64,000 nucleotides of DNA from a virus (lineage: Duplodnaviria; Caudoviricetes), in IMG/VR virus record IMGVR_UViG_3300031555_003590, positions 1-64,000 of that record. One strand, given 5' to 3'. A model generated the notes under the pieces. It was not told the origin of the DNA. It saw only the letters and a list, made by a program, of their open reading frames with translations, and did no database searches. The translations under genes were made by a program, and so were the position numbers. Positions 2,874-47,239 of this stretch are shown in pieces (position 1 is the first letter of the stretch; each line of letters opens with the position of its first letter).

Positions 2874-3013
2874 ATAAATTTTTATTATTTAAATAATATT
2901 TATTCATAATTATAAATACAATCCCCTTTCTATATAATATTTGTTACTTTTTTATTACTTTAATGGTTCCGAATGAAATTATATATTCTCATAATAGGAA
3001 GGAGTGAATATAA

Positions 3014-3163
3014 TTGAAGAAAAATAAAAAGAAACTTAATGGTAGAGATGATGTTATTATTGTACATGAAGAAAATCCATATCTTAAACATAAGAAAAAT
3101 AGTAAAAAATATTCCATAATTAAAAAAATTTTTAAACCAATAAGATATAATGAGAAGGGATGA
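3014..3163 (+). CDS. Small basic hypothetical protein (49 aa, TTG start)
   Basis: Promoter motif at 2977-2989, RBS AGGAAGGAG, open frame MKKNKKKLNGRDD..., followed by a hairpin. Confidence 0.45.
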   Translation: MKKNKKKLNGRDDVIIVHEENPYLKHKKNSKKYSIIKKIFKPIRYNEKG

Positions 3164-3306
3164 TTATCCCTTCTCATTATATTCTTTATTAATATTATTC
3201 TAGGGTAGAATAATCTACTACAATAGTATCTAGATATTCAATAGATTCATATATCATGGTTTCTACTTCTTTAGTATGAGTGTTTAATTAAATTTTTATT
3301 ATATCA

Positions 3307-3714
3307 TTATTCAGTAAAATCTGCAGGTGCTTTTGTACTCGCAATACCTTTAACACCTAAAGATTTAAACCAAGCATATTGCTCTGACTGAGTCATATCC
3401 TCATCAAGTTCATCTAAATTAACATCCCCAGAAGCTATTTTAGCATTGAGAGAAGCAGAAAAAAGAGTTTCATTACTAATGAAATACTTAGGTACAAATA
3501 ACTCACTCATTTTAGCATTCGCTTCATCTACAGTCATCGTGCTAGTACATAAAGTTGTATCAAAATTACCAATAATTTCTATAAAACTATGCATCATATT
3601 ATCAGAATTAATCTGCCTAATATTATGATCTGAAAGACCTATAATTGAAAATGCTGATCGAGCATTTTCACCAAGATAATCAATTAAATTTCCTTTAAAA
3701 TATGCGATAGTCAT
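3307..3714 (-). CDS. Hypothetical tail-associated protein (possible fibre chaperone)
   Basis: ORF with AGGAGG RBS, last gene of the 6220-3307 cassette. Confidence 0.55.
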   Translation of the reverse strand: MTIAYFKGNLIDYLGENARSAFSIIGLSDHNIRQINSDNMMHSFIEIIGNFDTTLCTSTMTVDEANAKMSELFVPKYFISNETLFSASLNAKIASGDVNLDELDEDMTQSEQYAWFKSLGVKGIASTKAPADFTE

Positions 3715-3739: not shown

Positions 3740-4591
3740 TTAAGATTTTACTCCTACAGCTTTATCTACTATAAAATCTGTTGAATAATTAATTGTTGTA
3801 GTTGTTAATAAAGCACCATTATTAGGATTAATTTCATATAGATAATTTCTATAAGTAATAAATATTCTAGAATCTAGTCCAATAATACCCATAATACTAC
3901 TATTACTACTAAGCGGTGAATCATATGAAGTAAAATTAGATTGTACAAGATCAGTATAAATTCCAGATGCAGAATTTTTTCCTATACTTAATTTTTGACT
4001 ATCATTATATCCATATCGGGCTATTATTCCAGATTTATTTCCTCCATAAGAACCGGCATAAGTAAAATTATCATCACTAATACTACCTGAAGATATAATA
4101 CTTAGATTAGATGAGTTACGAACATATGATGTATAAGAATTATCATCATAACTATACATCCATGTTCCTATACTTACACCTATTCCTGTAGGAGAAGTAA
4201 TAGAGTTAATAACACTAAGATTTTCTAAATTAAGTTGTTGATATGTTTTAGTAGAATTATTATAAATCCAATAATAACCATCTACTCCTTGTGGTATTTC
4301 TTCCCACCAGTCAGTACTTAATGTTCTAACAATAGCACCAGTATCTGGATTTATTTCATTTAATTCTTGATATGTTATATCTGTATATCCTTCACTATCT
4401 TCATATTCATTATAATGAATATGAAGAATCATTTCTCTACCAGTAAGACTACTATAAAACAATCTAGCTATACCATCGGAATCACCAATCCAGGCTTTTA
4501 TTGCTTTTCTAGCAATATTATCTACACCAATCCACATATTTTTACAATTTTGAGCAATATTATTTACTCCGATATTAATTGCTTTACTCAT
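3740..4591 (-). CDS. Tail-tip / receptor-binding protein, paralog A
   Basis: Three IG(V/D)xxIAR-type N-terminal repeats followed by a Ser/Tyr-rich, beta-propeller-like region; directly downstream of the fibre gene. Confidence 0.6.
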   Translation of the reverse strand: MSKAINIGVNNIAQNCKNMWIGVDNIARKAIKAWIGDSDGIARLFYSSLTGREMILHIHYNEYEDSEGYTDITYQELNEINPDTGAIVRTLSTDWWEEIPQGVDGYYWIYNNSTKTYQQLNLENLSVINSITSPTGIGVSIGTWMYSYDDNSYTSYVRNSSNLSIISSGSISDDNFTYAGSYGGNKSGIIARYGYNDSQKLSIGKNSASGIYTDLVQSNFTSYDSPLSSNSSIMGIIGLDSRIFITYRNYLYEINPNNGALLTTTTINYSTDFIVDKAVGVKS

Positions 4592-24983: not shown

Positions 24984-27900
24984 TTATGTATCAATTAAAG
25001 AGGAATCAATTTTATACGCAGACATCATAGATTTACGTCCCTTCATATCTTCAGGTGTAGATCCCCTTAATAATTGGAATATTTTCATATCATTCTCAAT
25101 ATCAGAAATATTTACTCTAATTAACATACGAGTATTTGGTTCCATAATTGTAGTCCTAATATCATCTGCATCGTTCTCGCCTACATTACCTTCACACTAG
25201 TTCGCAACACTAGTGCAGTTCTCAGATACTATTCAATATCATGAACTTCTCTAGTTCTCACTAGATGCTGAGACTATATCTTATTTATCATTATGATAAA
25301 TATTAACCGCTTCGATTTAAGGGATTCTCACCCACCTGCATTAGCTTCAGGTCCTACTCCTATTGTTATACTATACTAGTATAACCTACGGGATAGTCGT
25401 TGAACTATATTCTATATTATGCAACTTTATTTTTTATACGTAATTTTGGTCGACGCTTATTAAAGACATCATATTTCAATGATAATTTTTTATATTTTGG
25501 ACTCATATATACAATCTTTGATAATGTTCTAATAGGAATATCAGTCATTTTAGATATTTTATCATATGATAAATCTTTATCAGTTAATAATTTGGCTGCT
25601 TCTTCTAATTTCTCAATTGGAAATTCTTCTTGAATAGCAGGTGGAATTATATTATAATCTTTAGCAATATGACTCCATGAACGACCTGTTCTTATTGAAT
25701 ATAATATAGATCTATTGATACCAGTTTCTCTTTCAATATCAATTAACCTAATATTAGGATCTTGACACATTTCACAGGCTTGTCTAATTTGTTCCTCAGT
25801 ATAAACATTTTCTGGATGATTGATTCCTTTAAAACTCATAAGTCCAAATTTTCTAGCATGTTCTTTATTTTCATCAGCAGTGCACCATTCCAGATTACCT
25901 ACCCAATTAAATTTAGGATTACCATTTAAATGGTTTACTTCTGGTTTATTCTCTGGATTAGGAATAAATGCTTCTGCAACTGCTCTATGAACACTAATAT
26001 GAAATGATTTTCCATTAAGATATCCATTTACACGCATACGACCAGTATTACTTACTTCTTGTTTAATAATTTCTCCACGTTTTCCAATAATTTCACCAGT
26101 ATTACTAACTAGATATCCAGTAGTTATACCTTTATGAATCACAGATCTCCATTCAGGATTAGCTAGATCATGAATATATCTATCCAGTTTTAATACTTCT
26201 TCAAATGTTAATTCAGATTCTGGAATTTTAAATAATTCCATAGATCTTTGATCTCGCATTTCTTGAATGGCTTCATTAAGAAGTTTCTTATCCAATAAAA
26301 TAACCTCCTTTCCATTATATTTGCTAATGGTAAGGTAATTAATTTTTGCATAATATAGAATCTTAGCTGCTGATTATCCAATCTCTAATCTTTTTACCAT
26401 ACCTGAATAATTAGTTCAGCCACTAGTTATATCACTATACTAGTTTGGTAATTAGAGCTCTAAGGAACTTCCAGCAATTCAATTAATAAGGCCTAGAGTT
26501 AAGCCTTTGAATCGGTGAGAAATAGTAGGTTGATATTTCTTTAAAATTTTTAGTACACCCAACATTGATAAATTATGTTCAGTACCAGTTTTAATATCCT
26601 TTAATACAAATGATTCTACTTTTGGAAATCCCCATTTACCTAGTATACAAATTAAATCTGATGCTTTCCTGAGTAATGATTCTGATACTTCAATTAGCTG
26701 CATCTTAGCATCAATAACACCTTTTATCAATTTATCTTTTTGATCATAATACATCTCAGGAAATTCTTCACCAATTCTATTTTGGATATAATTAATATTT
26801 TTATGGAATATTTCTACATACTTACTACTATTATTAGTATCAATATTATCATTATCAGAATTATATGCAATAGCTGCAAACTCTTCTAATATAATTTCTA
26901 ATAATCTATCATTAATTTTATAATGATCTACTAATAATTTGATACTATCTACATAGTTACTAGTAGAAGATAAGAATTCAATCCATTGGGTTTTATTTAG
27001 ATATTCAATTTCATCTTCATTATTATATCCTAATTTATAATCTTTACTAACTGCTTTTACATATCGATTGATATAATCTTCTTTATTAATAACGAATGGA
27101 TCCTTTTTATCATCAACACGATATAGAGGAGGTTCAGCTATAAATAATCTACCATCTTGAATAATTTCTGGATATAATTTAAAGAAGAAAGCCATGAGTA
27201 AACTGCGTATAAAGAGTCCATCAACCAATTGTGTTCACATTAGATTGCAAGTCTAATGCAGTTCTCTTATGAACTTCCCTATATTTCTATAGGAGTTCAG
27301 ACTATATCATCACTAATATCATTAGTGTCTCCTATTTCCAGTTACCATACTACTATTCCGTTTGTAGTATCCCTCATTAGCTTAGGGTGTACTCTACTAA
27401 CTACATATATATGTAGTGGTTCGATAGTCGTTGAACTTTCTATTTTAACGGAGAGTAAGTTAAAATAGTTTAGCTGCTGATTGTCCCAATGGGAGTTCCC
27501 AGCAATTAAAGAGATTTTAAGCGGACATTGAATTTTTATCCGCATCAGATGCAATAATTATTTTATTATATTGCAATTTACTAAGATCAAATTTACTTCC
27601 AACATTACATCCCATAATAGTAATAAGATCAGTAAATTCTTTATTACCTTTAGGGCCTACAATCTGATCTAATGTCATCTTGAAAACATTTGCACTGACA
27701 CCCCTTATTGCATAGAGTGCTTGGAATTTAGGATCTCTTGCTTGTTTTAAAGAGCCTTTGGCGCTATCTCCCTCAATTATATAGAGCTCTTTATATTCTT
27801 TCAATCCTTTGTTAGTACAAGGATCATAGTTTTTCATCTTATAAGATGACCAGTTAGTTAGAGCACCTTTAACAACTGCTGATTTTACTTTATCCCCTTC

Positions 27901-29097
27901 TCTACGAGCTTTAGCATTCATCTTAACAATACCAACTAACTCTTTTAATTGACCAGGATTCTTTTCAAAATAAGTTGTTAAATAATCACTAACTAATCCA
28001 ACTATAATTCTACGAACATCACTATTGACAACTTTATGTTTAGTTTGTCCAGTATATAATCTTTCATAATTAGTACGTAAAGCTACTGCAACTGATAAAC
28101 CTTGTCTAACATCATCCCATTTAATATCTAATGAATTCTTTTCTTTTTCAGATAATGTGTTTTTTGTTGCTTGTTGAAAGAATCTACAGATAGCTTCAAT
28201 AGTACCATCTAAATGATCGCCATTATCAACAGTATTATTTGAGTTGCTAAAACTATCAATATATGGAGTTAGTAAACTAGTAAATACAAATGCAACATCC
28301 AATGCCATAAAACGTTTTACATTTTCACCATCTAACTCTTCAATTATATTATCATCTTCTACAGTAAATCCAATTTTACTACTAATAAAATTTTCTTTAT
28401 TATTTCTTAATAAAATTTCATCAAATGGTTTGATATTATATTTTTCTGTAATTACTTGACCTTTCTTATTAGTATAAACAGAATCAATTGAAATCTTTTT
28501 CTTATTAAGAAATTGAAGATTCAATAATTCATTATGAATATCTTCCCAAACAATTTTTGTTTGTTTACCCATAACTTTAGAAGGTTTATATCTGATACTC
28601 ATACCATGTTTATCTGGAGAACATTTACCTTGATTCTCAGATACTTTAACACCTTCTTCAAATACTAAAGTCTTAAAAATATTTTCAGTACCGCCACGAT
28701 ATGAAGTAATTTCAACTCTTTCTGCTAGACCGCAAATGGCTAAGGTACCAGTACCATTTTGCCCAAGAGTTTCTGCTTTTAAACTAGCTTTATTAGATGT
28801 ATTAATATTAGAACCCATATTAAGGCTAGTATAAATTTGCTCTAAAATATTTGTAGGAATTCCCCTACCATTATCAATTATAGTAATAAACCCATCTCGT
28901 TCATCAAATTCAATATGAATTTTGTTACCAGGAGAACGAGGTGTTCTACACTCATCCAATGCATTATTTAAAATTTCATCTACTACAGATTTTGCACCAG
29001 CTTCATTAGAATAACTAATATATTGCCTATGTCTTACACGTATTTTTGAAATATCTGACTCTAGGTGAGTAAATACATCATCTTGGTATTTTGCCAT
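24984..29097 (-). CDS. gyrB: DNA gyrase/topoisomerase II subunit B; exons 29097..27538, 27225..26502 and 25183..24984 (827 aa spliced)
   Basis: E..NNALDE, DNGRGIP, GQTK, IIEGDSA; splicing restores DAD^VDG (TOPRIM) and RFKGL^GE. Confidence 0.93.
25184..26501 (-). mobile_element. Group I intron 2 of gyrB (1318 nt) carrying an HNH endonuclease
   Basis: P1 AAGGCT/GGCCTT with U.G; P AATTGCTGGAA, Q AATCAGCAG, R TTCAACGACTA, S AAGATATAGTCT; terminal G at 25184. Confidence 0.92.
25417..26295 (-). CDS. Intron-encoded HNH homing endonuclease (NUMOD4-like + HNH + HTH repeats)
   Basis: [43 protein letters not shown]...N..H. Confidence 0.92.
   Translation of the reverse strand: [292 protein letters not shown]
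27226..27537 (-). mobile_element. Group I intron 1 of gyrB (312 nt, no ORF)
   Basis: P1 GCGGAT/GTCCGC with U.G; P10 TCAAT/GTTGA; P AATTGCTGGGAA, Q AATCAGCAG, R TTCAACGACTA, S ATGATATAGTCT; terminal G at 27226. Confidence 0.93.
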
Positions 29098-45218: not shown

Positions 45219-45294
45219 TGGTGTGCCTGGCGGGATTCGAACCCACGACCCTTTGATTAAAAGTCAAATGCTCTACCGACTGAGCTACAGGCAC
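45219..45294 (-). tRNA. trnK: tRNA-Lys(TTT)
   Basis: GTGCCTG...TTTGA-CTTTTAA-TCAAA...GGTTCGAATCC...CAGGCAC-ACCA. Confidence 0.97.
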
Positions 45295-45300
45295 ATGTTT

Positions 45301-45450
45301 AAAAGGATTCACCGTGGGCTACTCACACATAGTTCTGTCGGTTAGTGTTACCGACGTACTATTATATGTTTTCACCTTTAGTATATAGGCTCACTACTTC
45401 CTATATACCCAGGGGCACGGCTACTCTACTCCCTGTAAATTAAACATATA
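45301..45450 (-). ncRNA. Unidentified ~150-nt structured RNA with possible pseudoknots
   Basis: TATATGTTT/AAACATATA, CAGGG/CCCTG, GTATATAGG/CCTATATAC and GTCGGT/ACCGAC stems; loop CCGTG pairs with 3' CACGG. Confidence 0.6.
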
Positions 45451-45514
45451 TTGTATAATTATCTTTGGCACACAACACACATCAAAGATGTTATATAATA
45501 TATGTAATTTATAA

Positions 45515-45590
45515 TGGCTGGGCTAGATGGATTCGAACCATCGGAATGCAGGAGTCAAAGTCCTGTGCCTTACCACTTGGCTATAGCCCA
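45515..45590 (-). tRNA. trnQ: tRNA-Gln(TTG)
   Basis: TGGGCTA...CAGGA-CTTTGAC-TCCTG...GGTTCGAATCC...TAGCCCA-GCCA. Confidence 0.97.
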
Positions 45591-45670
45591 ATATATAAAA
45601 AGGTTTAATCTATATCTCCCACCTTCAAGGATGCACTTTTAGTAGCATTACTTCGGGAATAATTTCCCTA

Positions 45671-45746
45671 TGGCTCCCCCAGTTGGACTCGAACCAACGA
45701 CACTGCGGTTAACAGCCGCATGCTCTACCGACTGAGCTATGGAGGA
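45671..45746 (-). tRNA. trnN: tRNA-Asn(GTT)
   Basis: TCCTCCA...TGCGG-CTGTTAA-CCGCA...GGTTCGAGTCC...TGGGGGA-GCCA. Confidence 0.97.
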
Positions 45747-45751
45747 ATATA

Positions 45752-46118
45752 AAGTACAGACAGATCAACATTTTACACACTAACCTAGTCCTAAGACTGC
45801 TAGTACCTCTCCAAACAATTATTGCTTTCCACGCCTCAAATGTTGATGTGACTCTGCCTGATATTTACTCTGAGCAGTCACTACCCAGTTGTCAACCCCC
45901 ACTTAATCCTGCCTATTCTAGGTATCGATGTGATTGACTGCTTATGCCTTTAAGCATCGGATATCCTACTTCACCCATTTCAGATAATCCGCATAGCCTC
46001 CTACTTGGCTCTTATAGGCTTGATTTGCATTTTTTGAATAGAGTGCTACTCCCACACGTTCCCATCTCTATTACTGTAGTCAGTAATCCAGCCAGGATAT
46101 ATCATTTCACCTGGACTT
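45752..46118 (-). ncRNA. Unidentified ~370-nt highly structured RNA
   Basis: GC-enriched, no ORF in the track, about 10 complementary stems including crossing pairs (see findings). Confidence 0.65.
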
Positions 46119-46120
46119 AA

Positions 46121-46461
46121 TGGTGCGGGTAGCCGGACTCGAACCGGCATGGATTACTCCGAGAGATTTTCATCACACTCTTGGTTATGAATTCCCAAGC
46201 CAATTCAAAGAATTGTTGTGCGCTGGAATACGTTTTTACCATATCATTCCTGACTTAGGTAGTAGGTCTATATTCTCTACACATTTATCAAATTATTTCT
46301 AATTTGAATTTAGCACGGCGTTCCCATTGAGCCATTCACCGTTTTAGCCTACTCCACTTATAAAGTTTCCTTCATAAGGCTCCACCTTTACTCAAGGCAA
46401 CTTACTATAGCAAGTTCTCAATGGAGAAGTCTCTTGTGTCTGCCAATTTCACCATACCCGC
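46121..46461 (-). tRNA. trnL: tRNA-Leu(TAA), intron-split; exons 46461..46427 and 46170..46121 (85 nt mature)
   Basis: GCGGGTATGGTGAAATTGGCAGACACAAGAGACTT^AAAATCTCTCGGAGTAATCCATGCCGGTTCGAGTCCGGCTACCCGCACCA. Confidence 0.93.
46171..46426 (-). mobile_element. Group I intron (256 nt, trnL/IC3-like) in the Leu anticodon, U^AA
   Basis: P1 CTT/GAG with U.G; P2 CTTATGAAG-GAAA-CTTTATAAG; P3 AGTAGG/CCTACT; P7 GAATA/TATTC; terminal G at 46171. Confidence 0.88.
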
Positions 46462-46471
46462 ATATTATATA

Positions 46472-46975
46472 TCAAATATATTTAAAATAAGTTTTCTCAA
46501 TTTTTTGTGCAGGAATTTTATCTATTTTATTATTTTGAATAGATGCACCATATTTACCTGCACATTCTTTACTACAGAAATGAGGTTTATTTCTATTTCG
46601 TTTATCAGTTTGAGCTTTAGTTGGAGTAAACATCTTACCACATATCGGACATTTAATATCTTTAACTTCAACTCTAATTGCATCATTTTTGGTATGTTCT
46701 TTACGAGGTTGGATATCTAAATTATGAGGCAAATTATTAACTACATTCCAATCTTTATGATGAATGGTATCAGTATCTTTTATAAGTTTATTTATTTCAA
46801 TCTCTTTTAACGCTTTTGGGTAAGAAATTGTTTTTGTCTTACCTTTTATATTTTTTGATTTAGATGAGTCATTTAAAACTATATGTAATCTACCATCATC
46901 TCTTAGATATGGACCGTAAACTTTATCATATTCTGAATATAATTTCAGAATAGGACTTAAATCTTTATTATCCAT
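46472..46975 (-). CDS. Free-standing HNH endonuclease with C-terminal Zn finger
   Basis: IHHKDWNVVNNLPHNL......EH; CPICG...FCSKEC. Confidence 0.85.
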   Translation of the reverse strand: MDNKDLSPILKLYSEYDKVYGPYLRDDGRLHIVLNDSSKSKNIKGKTKTISYPKALKEIEINKLIKDTDTIHHKDWNVVNNLPHNLDIQPRKEHTKNDAIRVEVKDIKCPICGKMFTPTKAQTDKRNRNKPHFCSKECAGKYGASIQNNKIDKIPAQKIEKTYFKYI

Positions 46976-47010
46976 ATTATTAAAACCTCCAATATATTAA
47001 GATGAAATAG

Positions 47011-47038
47011 CTGTGTCTGCCAATTCCACCACACCGGC
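47011..47038 (-). pseudogene. Orphan 5' half of a tRNA-Leu
   Basis: GCCGGTGTGGTGGAATTGGCAGACACAG versus the intact exon GCGGGTATGGTGAAATTGGCAGACACAA (24/28 identical). Confidence 0.8.
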
Positions 47039-47162
47039 AGATAAATGGCACTAACGTAGTTCCCACGGCTCTTTTTTCACCCTTCTTTATATAAAGTTAG
47101 GATGCCTCTCGCACTAGCTGTGCTAAGGTTTTAAGAATACTATATAGTATTCTTATTGCAAT

Positions 47163-47239
47163 TGGTGGGCCTTCAGGGGCTCGAACCCTGGACCTGCAGA
47201 TTATGAGTCTGATGCTCTAACCGGCTGAGCTAAAGGCCC
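47163..47239 (-). tRNA. trnI2: tRNA(CAT), most likely Ile2 (lysidine type)
   Basis: GGGCCTTTAGCTCAG...CTCATAA...AAGGCCC-ACCA; the acceptor resembles Firmicutes Ile2 and lacks the fMet C1:A72 mismatch. Confidence 0.9.

Follow-up and report, generated by a model that had tools for sequence, protein, structure and literature searches.

In a gut jumbo phage with a 292-kb genome, a selfish cassette made up of an HNH_3 nuclease gene and a complete tRNA-Leu(UAA) gene of its own has probably been copied into, and has destroyed, a resident intron-less tRNA-Leu(UAA) gene of host type, of which an orphan 5' fragment is left as a stump. The locus lies within a tRNA cluster on the minus strand of the window, meaning the whole stretch of 64,000 nucleotides of viral DNA that was analysed (positions 1 to 64,000 of IMG/VR record IMGVR_UViG_3300031555_003590), and its elements are listed below in the direction of transcription, with the basis of each in brackets.

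47163..47239, minus strand: tRNA-Met(CAU), the upstream neighbour in the tRNA cluster (ARAGORN; Rfam tRNA, 70 bits)
47012..47038, minus strand: orphan 5' fragment, positions 1-27 of a host-type tRNA-Leu(UAA), without the anticodon arm and without the entire 3' half (24/27 identity to the real 5' exon)
46976..47011, minus strand: left end of the putative cassette, a 36-nt spacer with a GGAGG ribosome-binding site, its first bases being the short motif CTATTT (sequence; junction comparison)
46472..46975, minus strand: free-standing gene for a predicted HNH homing endonuclease of 167 aa, with an HNH_3/I-HmuI-like catalytic core and, C-terminal to it, a Cys4 zinc ribbon (PHROG HNH; Pfam HNH_3 in relatives)
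46427..46461, minus strand: 5' exon of the inner tRNA-Leu(UAA), comprising the acceptor 5' strand, D arm, anticodon-stem 5' strand and C32 U33 U34 (aragorn -i; covariation)
46171..46426, minus strand: ORF-less group I intron of 256 nt (HMM of 11 homologues; compensatory changes)
46121..46170, minus strand: 3' exon of the inner tRNA-Leu(UAA), from A35 through the variable arm, T arm and acceptor 3' strand to A73 and an encoded CCA (sequence; aragorn -i; covariation)
45747..46120, minus strand: 373-nt non-coding spacer ahead of tRNA-Asn (T-arm/acceptor search, fold test)
45219..45746, minus strand: remaining tRNA cluster with tRNA-Asn(GUU), tRNA-Gln(UUG) and tRNA-Lys(UUU) (ARAGORN; Rfam)

Two tRNA-Leu alleles around one nuclease gene

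A sequence-only reading of this DNA had described the HNH gene as bracketed by two diverged copies of the tRNA-Leu 5' half, the upstream one breaking off at the start of the anticodon stem, and both observations were confirmed. The search of the 292-kb genome returned these two copies only, one at 46461-46435 that matches the query without a mismatch and one at 47038-47012 with 3 mismatches in 27 nt; both are on the minus strand, and 0 copies are expected from 100 shuffles. The three differences between the orphan and the inner 5' exon fall at tRNA positions 3, 7 and 13, and the similarity ends after position 27, which is where the anticodon stem would start. The inner copy belongs to a complete tRNA-Leu(UAA) gene at 46461-46121 of the minus strand, in which aragorn -i found a 256-nt insertion. 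The program labels this intron-bearing tRNA Phe-GAA, a mislabel, given that the long variable arm, A73 and the U-1/omega-G rule identify it as a Leu-UAA gene split between U34 and A35. The HNH stop codon lies 10 nt upstream of this gene, the intron holds no ORF, and a Leu-type 3' half occurs only once in the genome. An assembly artefact was rejected because the same arrangement is found at 99.9% identity in two other JGI assemblies and is carried by identical Logan contigs from animal-faeces runs; the joints of the Logan contigs are tRNA genes of other organisms and are uninformative.

Over all 27 nucleotides the orphan equals intron-less tRNA-Leu genes on the chromosomes of 30 bacterial genomes, most of them Ruminococcus/Oscillospirales; the gene is a UAA one in 26 of the 30, and the partner strand is CACCGG in all chromosomal tRNA-Leu genes that match the orphan. 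A host-type intron-less tRNA-Leu(UAA) allele also occurs at L332. The acceptor 3' strand of the inner tRNA is fully complementary to its own 5' exon but would have a single mismatch with the orphan, the differences at positions 3 and 7 being compensated in the inner 3' half. The orphan was itself matched by the family HMM (E=0.011), and no 3' half matching it was found anywhere in the genome. By sequence comparison, the orphan is an independent allele and not a decayed copy of the neighbouring tRNA-Leu gene. The invasion of an intron-less tRNA-Leu gene by a unit of HNH gene, replacement 5' exon and intron, as had been proposed, therefore needs amendment: an HNH unit appears to have displaced an older tRNA-Leu gene whose 5' part remains, as the different, host-type allele of the orphan and the presence of both stumps around the cassette in relatives indicate, but because the inner acceptor strands match each other and not the orphan, the mobile unit would be the HNH gene plus a whole tRNA-Leu gene rather than a 5' exon plus intron.

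Two other origins of the orphan were considered and rejected. A split or trans-spliced tRNA is contradicted by the lack of a second 3' half in the genome and by an orphan without an anticodon-stem strand. Duplication of an att site by integrase-type insertion is contradicted by a duplicated part that is the 5' half, by copies that are different alleles and by an insert that encodes the HNH protein and the tRNA only, with no integrase. The 373-nt spacer contained no T-arm or acceptor match that could be a remnant of the orphan's 3' half and folded no better than shuffled sequence (z=-0.7). Neither this spacer nor the 123-nt spacer had a homologue in the approximately 360 loci compared, and Rfam searches of the region at E<=10 detected no group I, ROOL, GOLLD or other family in the intron or in either spacer.

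A group I intron family in phage tRNA genes

The landmarks of a group I intron could be placed within the insertion. U34 at the splice site pairs with a G at 46382, P3 is formed by 46352-46348 with 46266-46262, P7 by 46275-46271 with 46230-46226, and omega-G is at 46171. Although the Rfam model RF00028 gave no match to this intron even at E<=10, it matched aligned homologues at 46-62 bits (L250, L249, L272, L224 and L173), and an HMM built from 11 homologous phage pre-tRNAs with the present one left out matched 46460-46123 over its full length (E=7.6e-51). RNAalifold on 12 sequences found changes on both sides in 43 of 66 pairs, distributed over P3 (5 pairs), P4 (6 pairs), three P9 helices and the cloverleaf of the exons, whose pairs are supported by covariation including the anticodon stem formed across the intron. 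P7 was not recovered by RNAalifold; in the alignment read by eye, its C-G is replaced by A-U in this intron. The pairing of P1, likewise read by eye and unscored, has a 5' exon ending in CUU, a guide GAG conserved in 12/12 sequences and an intron-terminal G before AAAAUC. Thus, similarity to recognised introns, compensated core helices and a U-1 wobble with G in P1 together with omega-G were all found, and by homology the insertion is a member of a conserved group I ribozyme family for which splicing is predicted.

This intron family is present in more than 118 viral contigs, among which L081 and L045 represent an intron-plus and an intron-minus version of one tRNA locus. The nearest relative of the inner tRNA, L312, agrees with it in acceptor and T arm and has a homologous intron whose P1 loop encodes an HNH protein of the present family; in the present intron, the P1 loop is longer by an insert of about 35 nt where relatives carry the HNH ORF (ORF position from L312). 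These likenesses place the inner tRNA in a lineage of phage tRNA-Leu genes that bear introns. No RNA sequencing run was listed with this sequence.

An HNH family at tRNA-Leu genes

The HNH ORF (46975-46472) is intact, encodes 167 aa downstream of a GGAGG ribosome-binding site and is matched by PHROG HNH families (E=1e-11). On its own it gave no match to Pfam HNH_3; five of six aligned relatives did (best E=1.5e-7), and a profile match to I-HmuI (PDB 1u3e) was weak (E=0.025). H73, D75, N77, N80, N81, N85 and H94 are invariant in the alignment that includes this phage's protein, all invariant H/N/C columns are kept, and the beta-beta-alpha-metal motif with its conserved His, Asn and His/Asn residues is present. 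At least 65 homologues were found at 39-57% identity. Among the matches listed from IMG/VR, the HNH gene lies inside a tRNA-Leu intron at about 36 of 79 loci and abuts a tRNA-Leu gene at about 30; its stop codon precedes an intron-less tRNA-Leu by 0-15 nt at about 14 loci, it follows an intron-less tRNA-Leu directly at about 8, and it stands upstream of an intron-bearing one at 6 further loci, all of these counts being samples from a survey that includes near-duplicates. Because the family lies inside tRNA-Leu(UAA) introns or abuts tRNA-Leu genes, these positions support a tie between the family and tRNA-Leu and a tRNA-Leu-directed activity of the present nuclease.

A free HNH gene paired with an ORF-less intron-bearing tRNA-Leu gene likewise occurs at L249, L250, L268, L272 and L303. 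The nuclease of this phage and those of L249, L250 and L272 form one clade (SH-aLRT 100) in which all four members share the layout, the inner tRNA being interrupted at 34/35 in this phage, at 25/26 in L249, at 31/32 in L250 and at 34/35 in L272; introns are found in about 2 of 31 background phage tRNA-Leu(UAA) genes. These observations bear on the possibility of mere coincidence, namely that two tRNA-Leu genes stood in tandem, that a free-standing HNH gene landed in the first for unconnected reasons, and that the intron of the second is an independent passenger with no interaction between nuclease and intron. A genome full of group I introns and HNH genes is compatible with such an encounter, as is the reputation of phage tRNA clusters as homing-endonuclease hotspots (SegB; PMC2330249). 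However, the layout is seen again with the three nearest HNH relatives, which reside in different phages and have different outer tRNAs, and neither the family-wide link to tRNA-Leu(UAA) nor the site depletion described below would then be expected, and we consider coincidence quite improbable.

The canonical sequence GA|CUUAA at positions 30-36 was present in 33 of 47 background phage tRNA-Leu(UAA) genes versus 5 of 22 intron-less ones abutting a free HNH gene (Fisher p=2.8e-4, in a comparison that ignores relatedness and draws on listed loci, some of them near-duplicates), and the canonical anticodon-arm sequence was kept in 6/6 intron-bearing UAA genes next to an HNH gene. Next to free HNH genes, positions 30-31 can read GC, GT or GG. 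Depletion of the canonical site in the intron-less neighbours fits target immunity gained either by an intron or by substitution. The proposed partnership of nuclease and intron holds only in part. All four members of the clade are intron-bearing and the intron-less neighbours are depleted of the canonical site, but routine occurrence of the HNH gene beside intron-less tRNA-Leu genes, which had been named beforehand as evidence against the proposal, was observed for at least 20 relatives, and five of these neighbouring genes retain the canonical site. Since relatives routinely adjoin intron-less genes, the intron is not an obligatory partner of the nuclease; and given how many neighbours are intron-less, five with the canonical site, it would not be needed, and the recognition site may lie elsewhere.

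Stumps are also found in relatives, and the layout as a whole is seen in many uncultured phages. At 11 other loci among those listed, a 5' tRNA fragment ending at position 20-27 stands 3-80 nt upstream of the HNH start. Beyond the cassette, a 3' fragment that pairs through its acceptor strand with the 5' fragment is present in L249, L250, L272 and L279 (at least 4 loci), and the 3' fragment starts exactly at A35 in L272, L279, L330 and L331. The 5' and 3' stumps of L330 and L331 do not pair with each other, indicating that some stumps travel with the cassette and are not markers of the local recipient. The motif CTATTT at the junction of orphan and cassette is common to this phage, L272 and L330. 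The present locus lacks the 3' stump seen in relatives, and therefore either its history differs or a deletion came later. Stumps were recovered by a motif search; a search by similarity to the inner exon finds almost none because stumps are usually different alleles.

That some 3' stumps begin at A35, the intron insertion site, raises the alternative of a rearranged mobile intron, in which the orphan is an old 5' exon that was once followed by an HNH-bearing intron at 34/35, and recombination with a second tRNA-Leu allele swapped the ribozyme core and 3' exon for a complete gene, so that the HNH gene was left on the outside, in transit from an intron or towards one (the Bonocora-Shub pathway). 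Consistent with this, the HNH genes of relatives start a few tens of nt past the 5' exon within the P1 loop, the P1 loop of the present intron holds its 35-nt insert at that very ORF site, and about 22 switches among six layout classes, in-intron and free-standing included, are needed on the HNH tree. By contrast, the stumps end at 20-27 and not at 34 in 12/12 loci, the anticodon-stem 5' strand and CUU are absent behind a sharp boundary with no gradual decay, and neither Rfam nor the family HMM detected a ribozyme remnant between the HNH gene and the inner tRNA. We therefore regard a rearranged intron as unlikely, though the least unlikely of the alternatives to the overwriting of a resident gene by a cassette.

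The orphan might instead be kept for a role other than recombination, for example as a promoter element or as a processing or stability signal for the HNH message. Stumps stay tRNA-like across HNH proteins of 35-50% identity and always lie 3-80 nt upstream of the start codon, and a -35/-10-like pair (47023-46994) overlaps the orphan and uses TTGGCA of the D loop. However, promoter-like sites occur at chance level (8 found versus 7.8 expected in shuffled sequence), many free-standing relatives have no stump, and nothing is shared beyond the tRNA part itself, with no other structure or motif, making such a role very improbable.

Relatives with an uninterrupted tRNA-Leu gene and no HNH gene had been named as the check to make; no close relative of this phage with an intact tRNA-Leu here turned up in viral contigs, 5.8 billion proteins or JGI metagenome contigs. 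The 411-aa neighbour protein had no relative in viral contigs and only itself among the 5.8 billion proteins, an exact search of JGI metagenome contigs for the spacer-orphan junction gave no match, and in GenBank no phage close to this one was found, the tRNA genes alone being matched. For L272, an intact outer tRNA was found in its own contig only, with no empty site. As no empty site was found, the insertion itself is inferred.

A proposed route of insertion and its relation to known systems

We infer the specificity and position of cleavage, immunity, splicing, and the direction and mechanism of insertion as follows. The HNH enzyme would recognise the part of intron-less tRNA-Leu(UAA) DNA from the D stem to the anticodon loop and cut near tRNA position 26-28, and the break would be repaired from a cassette-bearing genome. 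With homology upstream of the HNH gene missing, the left end would be joined illegitimately, leaving positions 1-27 of the old gene. The cassette's own tRNA would restore tRNA-Leu(UAA) function and would escape the nuclease, as the group I intron parts the target halves between U34 and A35 and would self-splice out after transcription. In combination with the inner 3' exon or with a 3' stump, the stump so formed could then act as a homology arm for homing into further tRNA-Leu genes. It is possible, though we hold this only tentatively, that such loci represent a class of selfish element that has not been described before and is common among phages of gut and rumen, namely a 'gene-replacement' homing cassette in which an HNH gene and a tRNA-Leu(UAA) copy made immune by an intron or by substitutions overwrite resident genes and use the stumps of their victims as homology arms. 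Because the stump is identical to the chromosomal gene of likely Ruminococcus-type hosts, the HNH enzyme might also cut the host's tRNA-Leu(UAA) gene during infection, the phage supplying a protected tRNA.

The closest precedent is collaborative homing by the free-standing endonuclease F-CphI and an ORF-less psbA intron in cyanophage S-PM2, of which a second phage system is known (PMC3984707; PMC6083498). As there, the presumed target coincides with the region of intron insertion, and the intron would give immunity and be carried along. Unlike psbA, the target here is a tRNA gene and not a protein gene, the predicted nuclease is of the HNH_3 and not the Endo VII-like type, a whole replacement gene appears to be carried with stumps of the overwritten gene left behind, and the intron is optional across the family with substitutions seeming to replace it. 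SegB of T4, a GIY-YIG free-standing homing endonuclease of the T4 tRNA cluster (PMC2330249), is likewise a free-standing phage nuclease with a recognition site in tRNA gene sequence (putative in the present case) that spreads with neighbouring tRNA genes; it differs in being GIY-YIG and in reading a T-arm motif of several tRNAs, and no intron, isotype specificity or disrupted-tRNA stumps have been described for it. The HNH nicking endonucleases I-HmuI and I-HmuII, which introns of the Bacillus phages SPO1 and SP82 encode, belong to the same HNH_3-like catalytic family, and many members of the present family are similarly encoded inside phage group I introns. The I-HmuI intron, by contrast, resides in a DNA polymerase gene and the enzyme has another C-terminal DNA-binding part, whereas the present HNH protein has a Cys4 zinc ribbon and a free-standing gene.

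Comparison was also made with bacterial tRNA group I introns, namely those of cyanobacterial/plastid tRNA-Leu(UAA), Azoarcus tRNA-Ile and Synechocystis tRNA-fMet with I-Ssp6803I, an intron-encoded nuclease specific for a tRNA anticodon region, and those of the Williams 2020 census (10.1101/2020.01.27.920355). The insertion site between U34 and A35 of tRNA-Leu-UAA is shared, as are a compact core, omega-G and a short P1 of three pairs with CUU. The bacterial introns are chromosomal, whereas the present family is abundant in phage tRNA genes, is paired with an HNH family and has at least one member inserted elsewhere than in the anticodon loop (L249, 25/26).

All phage introns known at the time of a 2014 review were in protein-coding genes (PMC3984707). 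If the present interpretation is correct, phage tRNA genes would also harbour self-splicing introns, of which more than 100 were found here and none appear in that review. One nuclease family would then be represented in every stage postulated by models of mobile-intron origin, being free beside its target, free beside an intron-protected target, and inside the intron, and how nuclease genes and introns become associated, a question of long standing, would become testable by comparison and simple cleavage assays. These HNH enzymes would also form a natural set of nucleases reading about 20-30 bp in a conserved tRNA gene, for which resistant natural variants are already catalogued. Finally, a homing endonuclease could invade an essential small gene without relying on splicing, by bringing a resistant spare copy and leaving recognisable stumps behind.

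Layout of the tRNA-Leu locus and its intron

The window covers the opening 64 kb of its source virus record, which is 292,119 bp in length and complete by CheckV; identical or near-identical sequence is present in animal-faeces metagenomes, and two further JGI samples contain the same sequence at 99.9% identity. The whole genome possesses only five tRNA genes, arranged in a single minus-strand cluster (Met-CAU, Leu-UAA, Asn-GUU, Gln-UUG and Lys-UUU; 45219-47239). The codons served are AUG, UUA, AAY, CAA and AAA, which, Met excepted, are A/U-rich in agreement with the AT-rich genome.

Features of the tRNA-Leu locus
47239-47163 (-): tRNA-Met, first in minus-strand order
Between tRNA-Met and the orphan (-): spacer, 124 nt
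47038-47012 (-): tRNA-Leu 5' fragment (the orphan), 27 nt
Between the orphan and the HNH ORF (-): spacer, 36 nt, with GGAGG
46975-46472 (-): HNH ORF, 167 aa
Between the HNH ORF and tRNA-Leu (-): gap, 10 nt
46461-46121 (-): tRNA-Leu gene split by 256 nt (the inner tRNA)
After tRNA-Leu (-): spacer, 373 nt, then tRNA-Asn

The sequence-only reading had described two tRNA-Leu 5' copies with the HNH gene between them and a break at the anticodon stem, and this layout is accurate to within one base. The orphan agrees with the start of the real gene in 24 of 27 nt (0 such matches in 100 shuffles), and the likeness stops at position 27, the expected start of the anticodon stem. These are the only two copies of the 5' half in the whole genome, while the Leu-type 3' half is present once. 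A -35-like TTGGCA in the orphan D loop, with a -10-like TAATAT 18 nt downstream, lies ahead of the HNH start (46994-47023, -), and promoter-like pairs of this kind at the orphan are no more frequent than in shuffled sequence.

ARAGORN with introns allowed detects the split gene and labels it Phe-GAA because it sets the boundary one base off. Given the long variable arm, A73 and Leu-type D arm, together with an exon 1 ending in CUU and an exon 2 beginning with AAAA under the group I rule (U before the 5' splice site, G last in the intron), the gene is therefore Leu-UAA, with the split falling between U34 and A35, where cyanobacterial and plastid tRNA-Leu genes classically carry their intron (Williams 2020 preprint, 10.1101/2020.01.27.920355).

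Rfam Intron_gpI gave no match to the window intron even at E<=10, which counts against a group I assignment. A 28-nt core motif with 19 specified bases occurs in >118 IMG/VR stretches among the matches listed, about 100 of them within split tRNA calls, mostly Leu-UAA, by ARAGORN -i, which over-calls. Aligning the window intron with 11 ORF-less relatives gave >100 invariant columns, from which RNAalifold found the exon cloverleaf across the intron as well as P3, P4 and three P9 helices, with 43 of 66 pairs kept via changes on both sides. P7 was not recovered by RNAalifold in this alignment; read by eye, most of the aligned introns have C-G there, and ours has A-U. RF00028 scored 46-62 bits on the homologues in L250, L249, L272, L224 and L173 (IMG/VR phage loci, as are all L numbers here), and a profile of the 11 relatives, with ours left out, matched 46460-46123 over its full length (E=7.6e-51), its other notable match in the genome being the orphan only (E=0.011). 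Homologue scores, profile match and covariation thus place the intron, as a diverged member, in a large group I family, with splicing predicted from sequence. Its P1 loop holds an extra insert of ~35 nt at the site occupied by an ORF in relatives such as L312.

The genome is abundant in group I introns, with 3 regions above the RF00028 cut-off and several slightly under it. A strong one (83.5 bits; 27277-27547, -) comes after a GyrB/Toprim topoisomerase ORF (27517-29097), and directly downstream are a second, weak intron match (25249-25390, -) and another HNH_3 ORF (25417-26295, -). At least three other matches lie at about 106, 110 and 189 kb.

The HNH family and its association with tRNA-Leu

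Pfam gave only a weak zinc-finger match for our HNH protein, while PHROG HNH families matched at E=1e-11 and Pfam HNH_3 was matched by 5/6 aligned relatives. Our protein retains all the invariant His, Asp, Asn and Cys positions of the family and has 65 homologues at 39-57% identity in a large protein collection. The family profile weakly matched I-HmuI (1u3e), the structural relative, at E=0.025.

Homologues at 35-39% identity occupy tRNA-Leu(UAA) introns that belong to the window intron's own family (L211, L154, L152 and L236), and in L105 one is placed 3 nt upstream of a tRNA-Leu(UAA) without an intron. Among the matches listed by a profile-guided scan were 79 IMG/VR loci.

Placement of HNH relatives in the 79 listed loci
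Inside a tRNA-Leu intron: about 36
Ahead of an intron-less tRNA-Leu, with the HNH stop 0-15 nt away: about 14
Directly after an intron-less tRNA-Leu: about 8
Upstream of an intron-bearing tRNA-Leu: 6 more
Elsewhere or ambiguous: the remainder

These placements therefore tie the family to tRNA-Leu, for the most part UAA, and by its genomic context the HNH is probably directed at tRNA-Leu, as had been proposed. Relatives routinely adjoin intron-less trnL, which is to the letter what the sequence-only reading had named as refuting its cassette. Placing six layout classes on the HNH protein tree required about 22 changes; the gene has therefore entered and left introns many times.

According to a 2014 review, every phage intron known at the time interrupted a protein-coding gene, although phages have many tRNA genes (PMC3984707), and our literature search, incomplete in coverage, found neither phage tRNA group I introns nor nested tRNA cassettes described since then. 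The intron core also appears in phage tRNAs called as Arg-UCU/ACG, Lys-UUU, Met-CAU, Ile, Tyr and Ser by ARAGORN -i, whose calls can be spurious (L145, L149, L153, L140, L244, L143, L187, L197 and L201; only L145 was inspected by eye). L081 and L045, both from JGI metagenome 3300045988, have syntenic tRNA clusters forming a clean intron-plus/intron-minus pair that differs by an 877-nt tRNA-Leu(UAA) intron coding for an unrelated HNH; both clusters include a CUA-anticodon (amber suppressor-type) tRNA. A 16-nt motif, GGTGAAATGATATATC, in the spacer that follows our tRNA-Leu (about 46085-46100 of the window) recurs in the non-coding region after the intron-bearing tRNA-Leu of L091, its arms being different in the two but complementary, and the two spacers show no likeness beyond it. 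Upstream of that tRNA-Leu (L091:10300-10720) are tRNA-like genes with ~59-nt insertions and a repeated motif, AGAGCCAATGCTTATTTCTT, with weak Rfam matches to YrlA (Y RNA-like). L173 has a full ROOL RNA (283 bits; 2879-3444) close to its tRNA cluster.

Stumps flanking the cassette in relatives

The nearest HNH relatives (L249, L250 and L272; 44-49% identity) form a clade with ours (SH-aLRT 100), and on the far side of the inner gene all three retain a 3' tRNA fragment. The acceptor strand of this fragment pairs with that of the upstream 5' fragment: ACCAGGA with TCCTGGT (L249), GGGCGGA with TCTGCCC (L250) and GCGGGGG with TCCCCGC (L272). They are therefore halves of one gene split by insertion of HNH plus tRNA. 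The suggestion that invasion left an old half behind holds up. The proposed unit of HNH, 5' exon and intron has to be corrected to one carrying a complete tRNA gene.

Eleven loci besides ours, spread over different HNH tree branches, have a 5' fragment ending at tRNA position 20-27 and lying 3-80 nt upstream of the HNH start, and the 3' fragment starts exactly at A35 in L272, L279, L330 and L331. If the arrangement were instead a rearranged HNH-bearing intron, the main rival, the A35 boundary would be well accounted for, but the position-27 boundary would not be explained. Insertion of a cassette of HNH and complete tRNA gene also came in another internal order, tRNA then HNH, in L279 and L314, with the same outer boundaries in L279. 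The 5' and 3' fragments of L330 and L331 do not pair with each other, and the 5' fragment is nearly the same in L249 and L330; some stumps therefore travel with the cassette. Because stumps are usually alleles differing from the inner exon, a search by inner-exon similarity misses them.

In L249 (3019-3330) a group I intron with a clean U.G P1 separates tRNA position 25 from position 26, where the D stem ends. To our knowledge, all reported bacterial tRNA group I introns are in the anticodon loop, and this one falls outside it. L249 and L250 (3007-3340) have an 11-13-bp perfect leader-trailer helix around the inner tRNA that prolongs the acceptor stem. Just downstream of the L272 cassette (3910-3990 and 4243-4345) are a near-threshold twister-sister match (31.7 bits vs 34) and a 100-nt 23S rRNA match.

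Possible target immunity and a proposed homing route

The canonical GA|CUUAA at positions 30-36 is present in 33/47 background phage tRNA-Leu(UAA) genes, but in only 5/22 intron-less ones adjoining a free-standing HNH of this family (Fisher p=2.8e-4, relatedness ignored; both counts among the matches listed). Where a free HNH adjoins an intron-bearing UAA gene, the predicted spliced form of that gene is canonical in 6/6 cases. Within the four-member clade, introns of different subfamilies sit at 34/35 (ours), 25/26 (L249), 31/32 (L250) and 34/35 (L272). This argues for separate intron gains, given that only about 2 in 31 background genes among the matches listed have an intron. Such a pattern would follow from a nuclease that recognises the D stem through the anticodon loop, and from an adjoining tRNA gene that has to carry an interruption or mutations in that stretch; the five intron-less neighbours with a canonical site are left unexplained by it. 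The earlier idea that the intron destroys the nuclease target survives as one apparent immunity route, with substitution as a second and the intron not a fixed partner.

We propose that the HNH would cut intron-less tRNA-Leu(UAA) DNA near position 26-28, as the common stump end suggests, and that the break would be repaired off a cassette-bearing genome. If only the right side offered homology, joining on the left would be illegitimate and the stump would stay; Parker, Belisle and Belfort reportedly described in 1999 illegitimate repair in T4 homing with limited exon homology. Once stumps surround the cassette, conserved D-arm and T-arm sequences could act as arms, with the recipient's own acceptor strand retained. 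T4 SegB (PMC2330249) is likewise a free-standing nuclease, reading tRNA T-arm sequence and spreading neighbouring tRNA genes. The earlier comparison with collaborative homing, as PMC3984707 defines it, is a fitting one; the model there is F-CphI with the psbA intron (PMC3984707, PMC6083498).

At the window locus, no 3' stump was found, reflecting either a right-hand crossover past the old gene or later stump deletion. The orphan's 27 nt occur exactly in two phage contigs (L083 and L305) and in the genomes of 30 bacterial species, mostly rumen/gut Ruminococcus, Ruminococcaceae and other Clostridia. In 26 of these 30 they begin an intron-less tRNA-Leu(UAA) with a matching 3' acceptor strand, which supplies the uninterrupted trnL with the orphan's start that the sequence-only reading had proposed to look for in relatives. 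The inner tRNA is instead similar to intron-bearing genes carried by phages: in L312 the acceptor stem is the same, the 28 nt at the 3' end are identical, and the intron, with a core 66% identical to ours, holds an HNH of this family in its P1 loop. The simplest reading is that a phage-lineage cassette overwrote a resident host-type tRNA-Leu gene.
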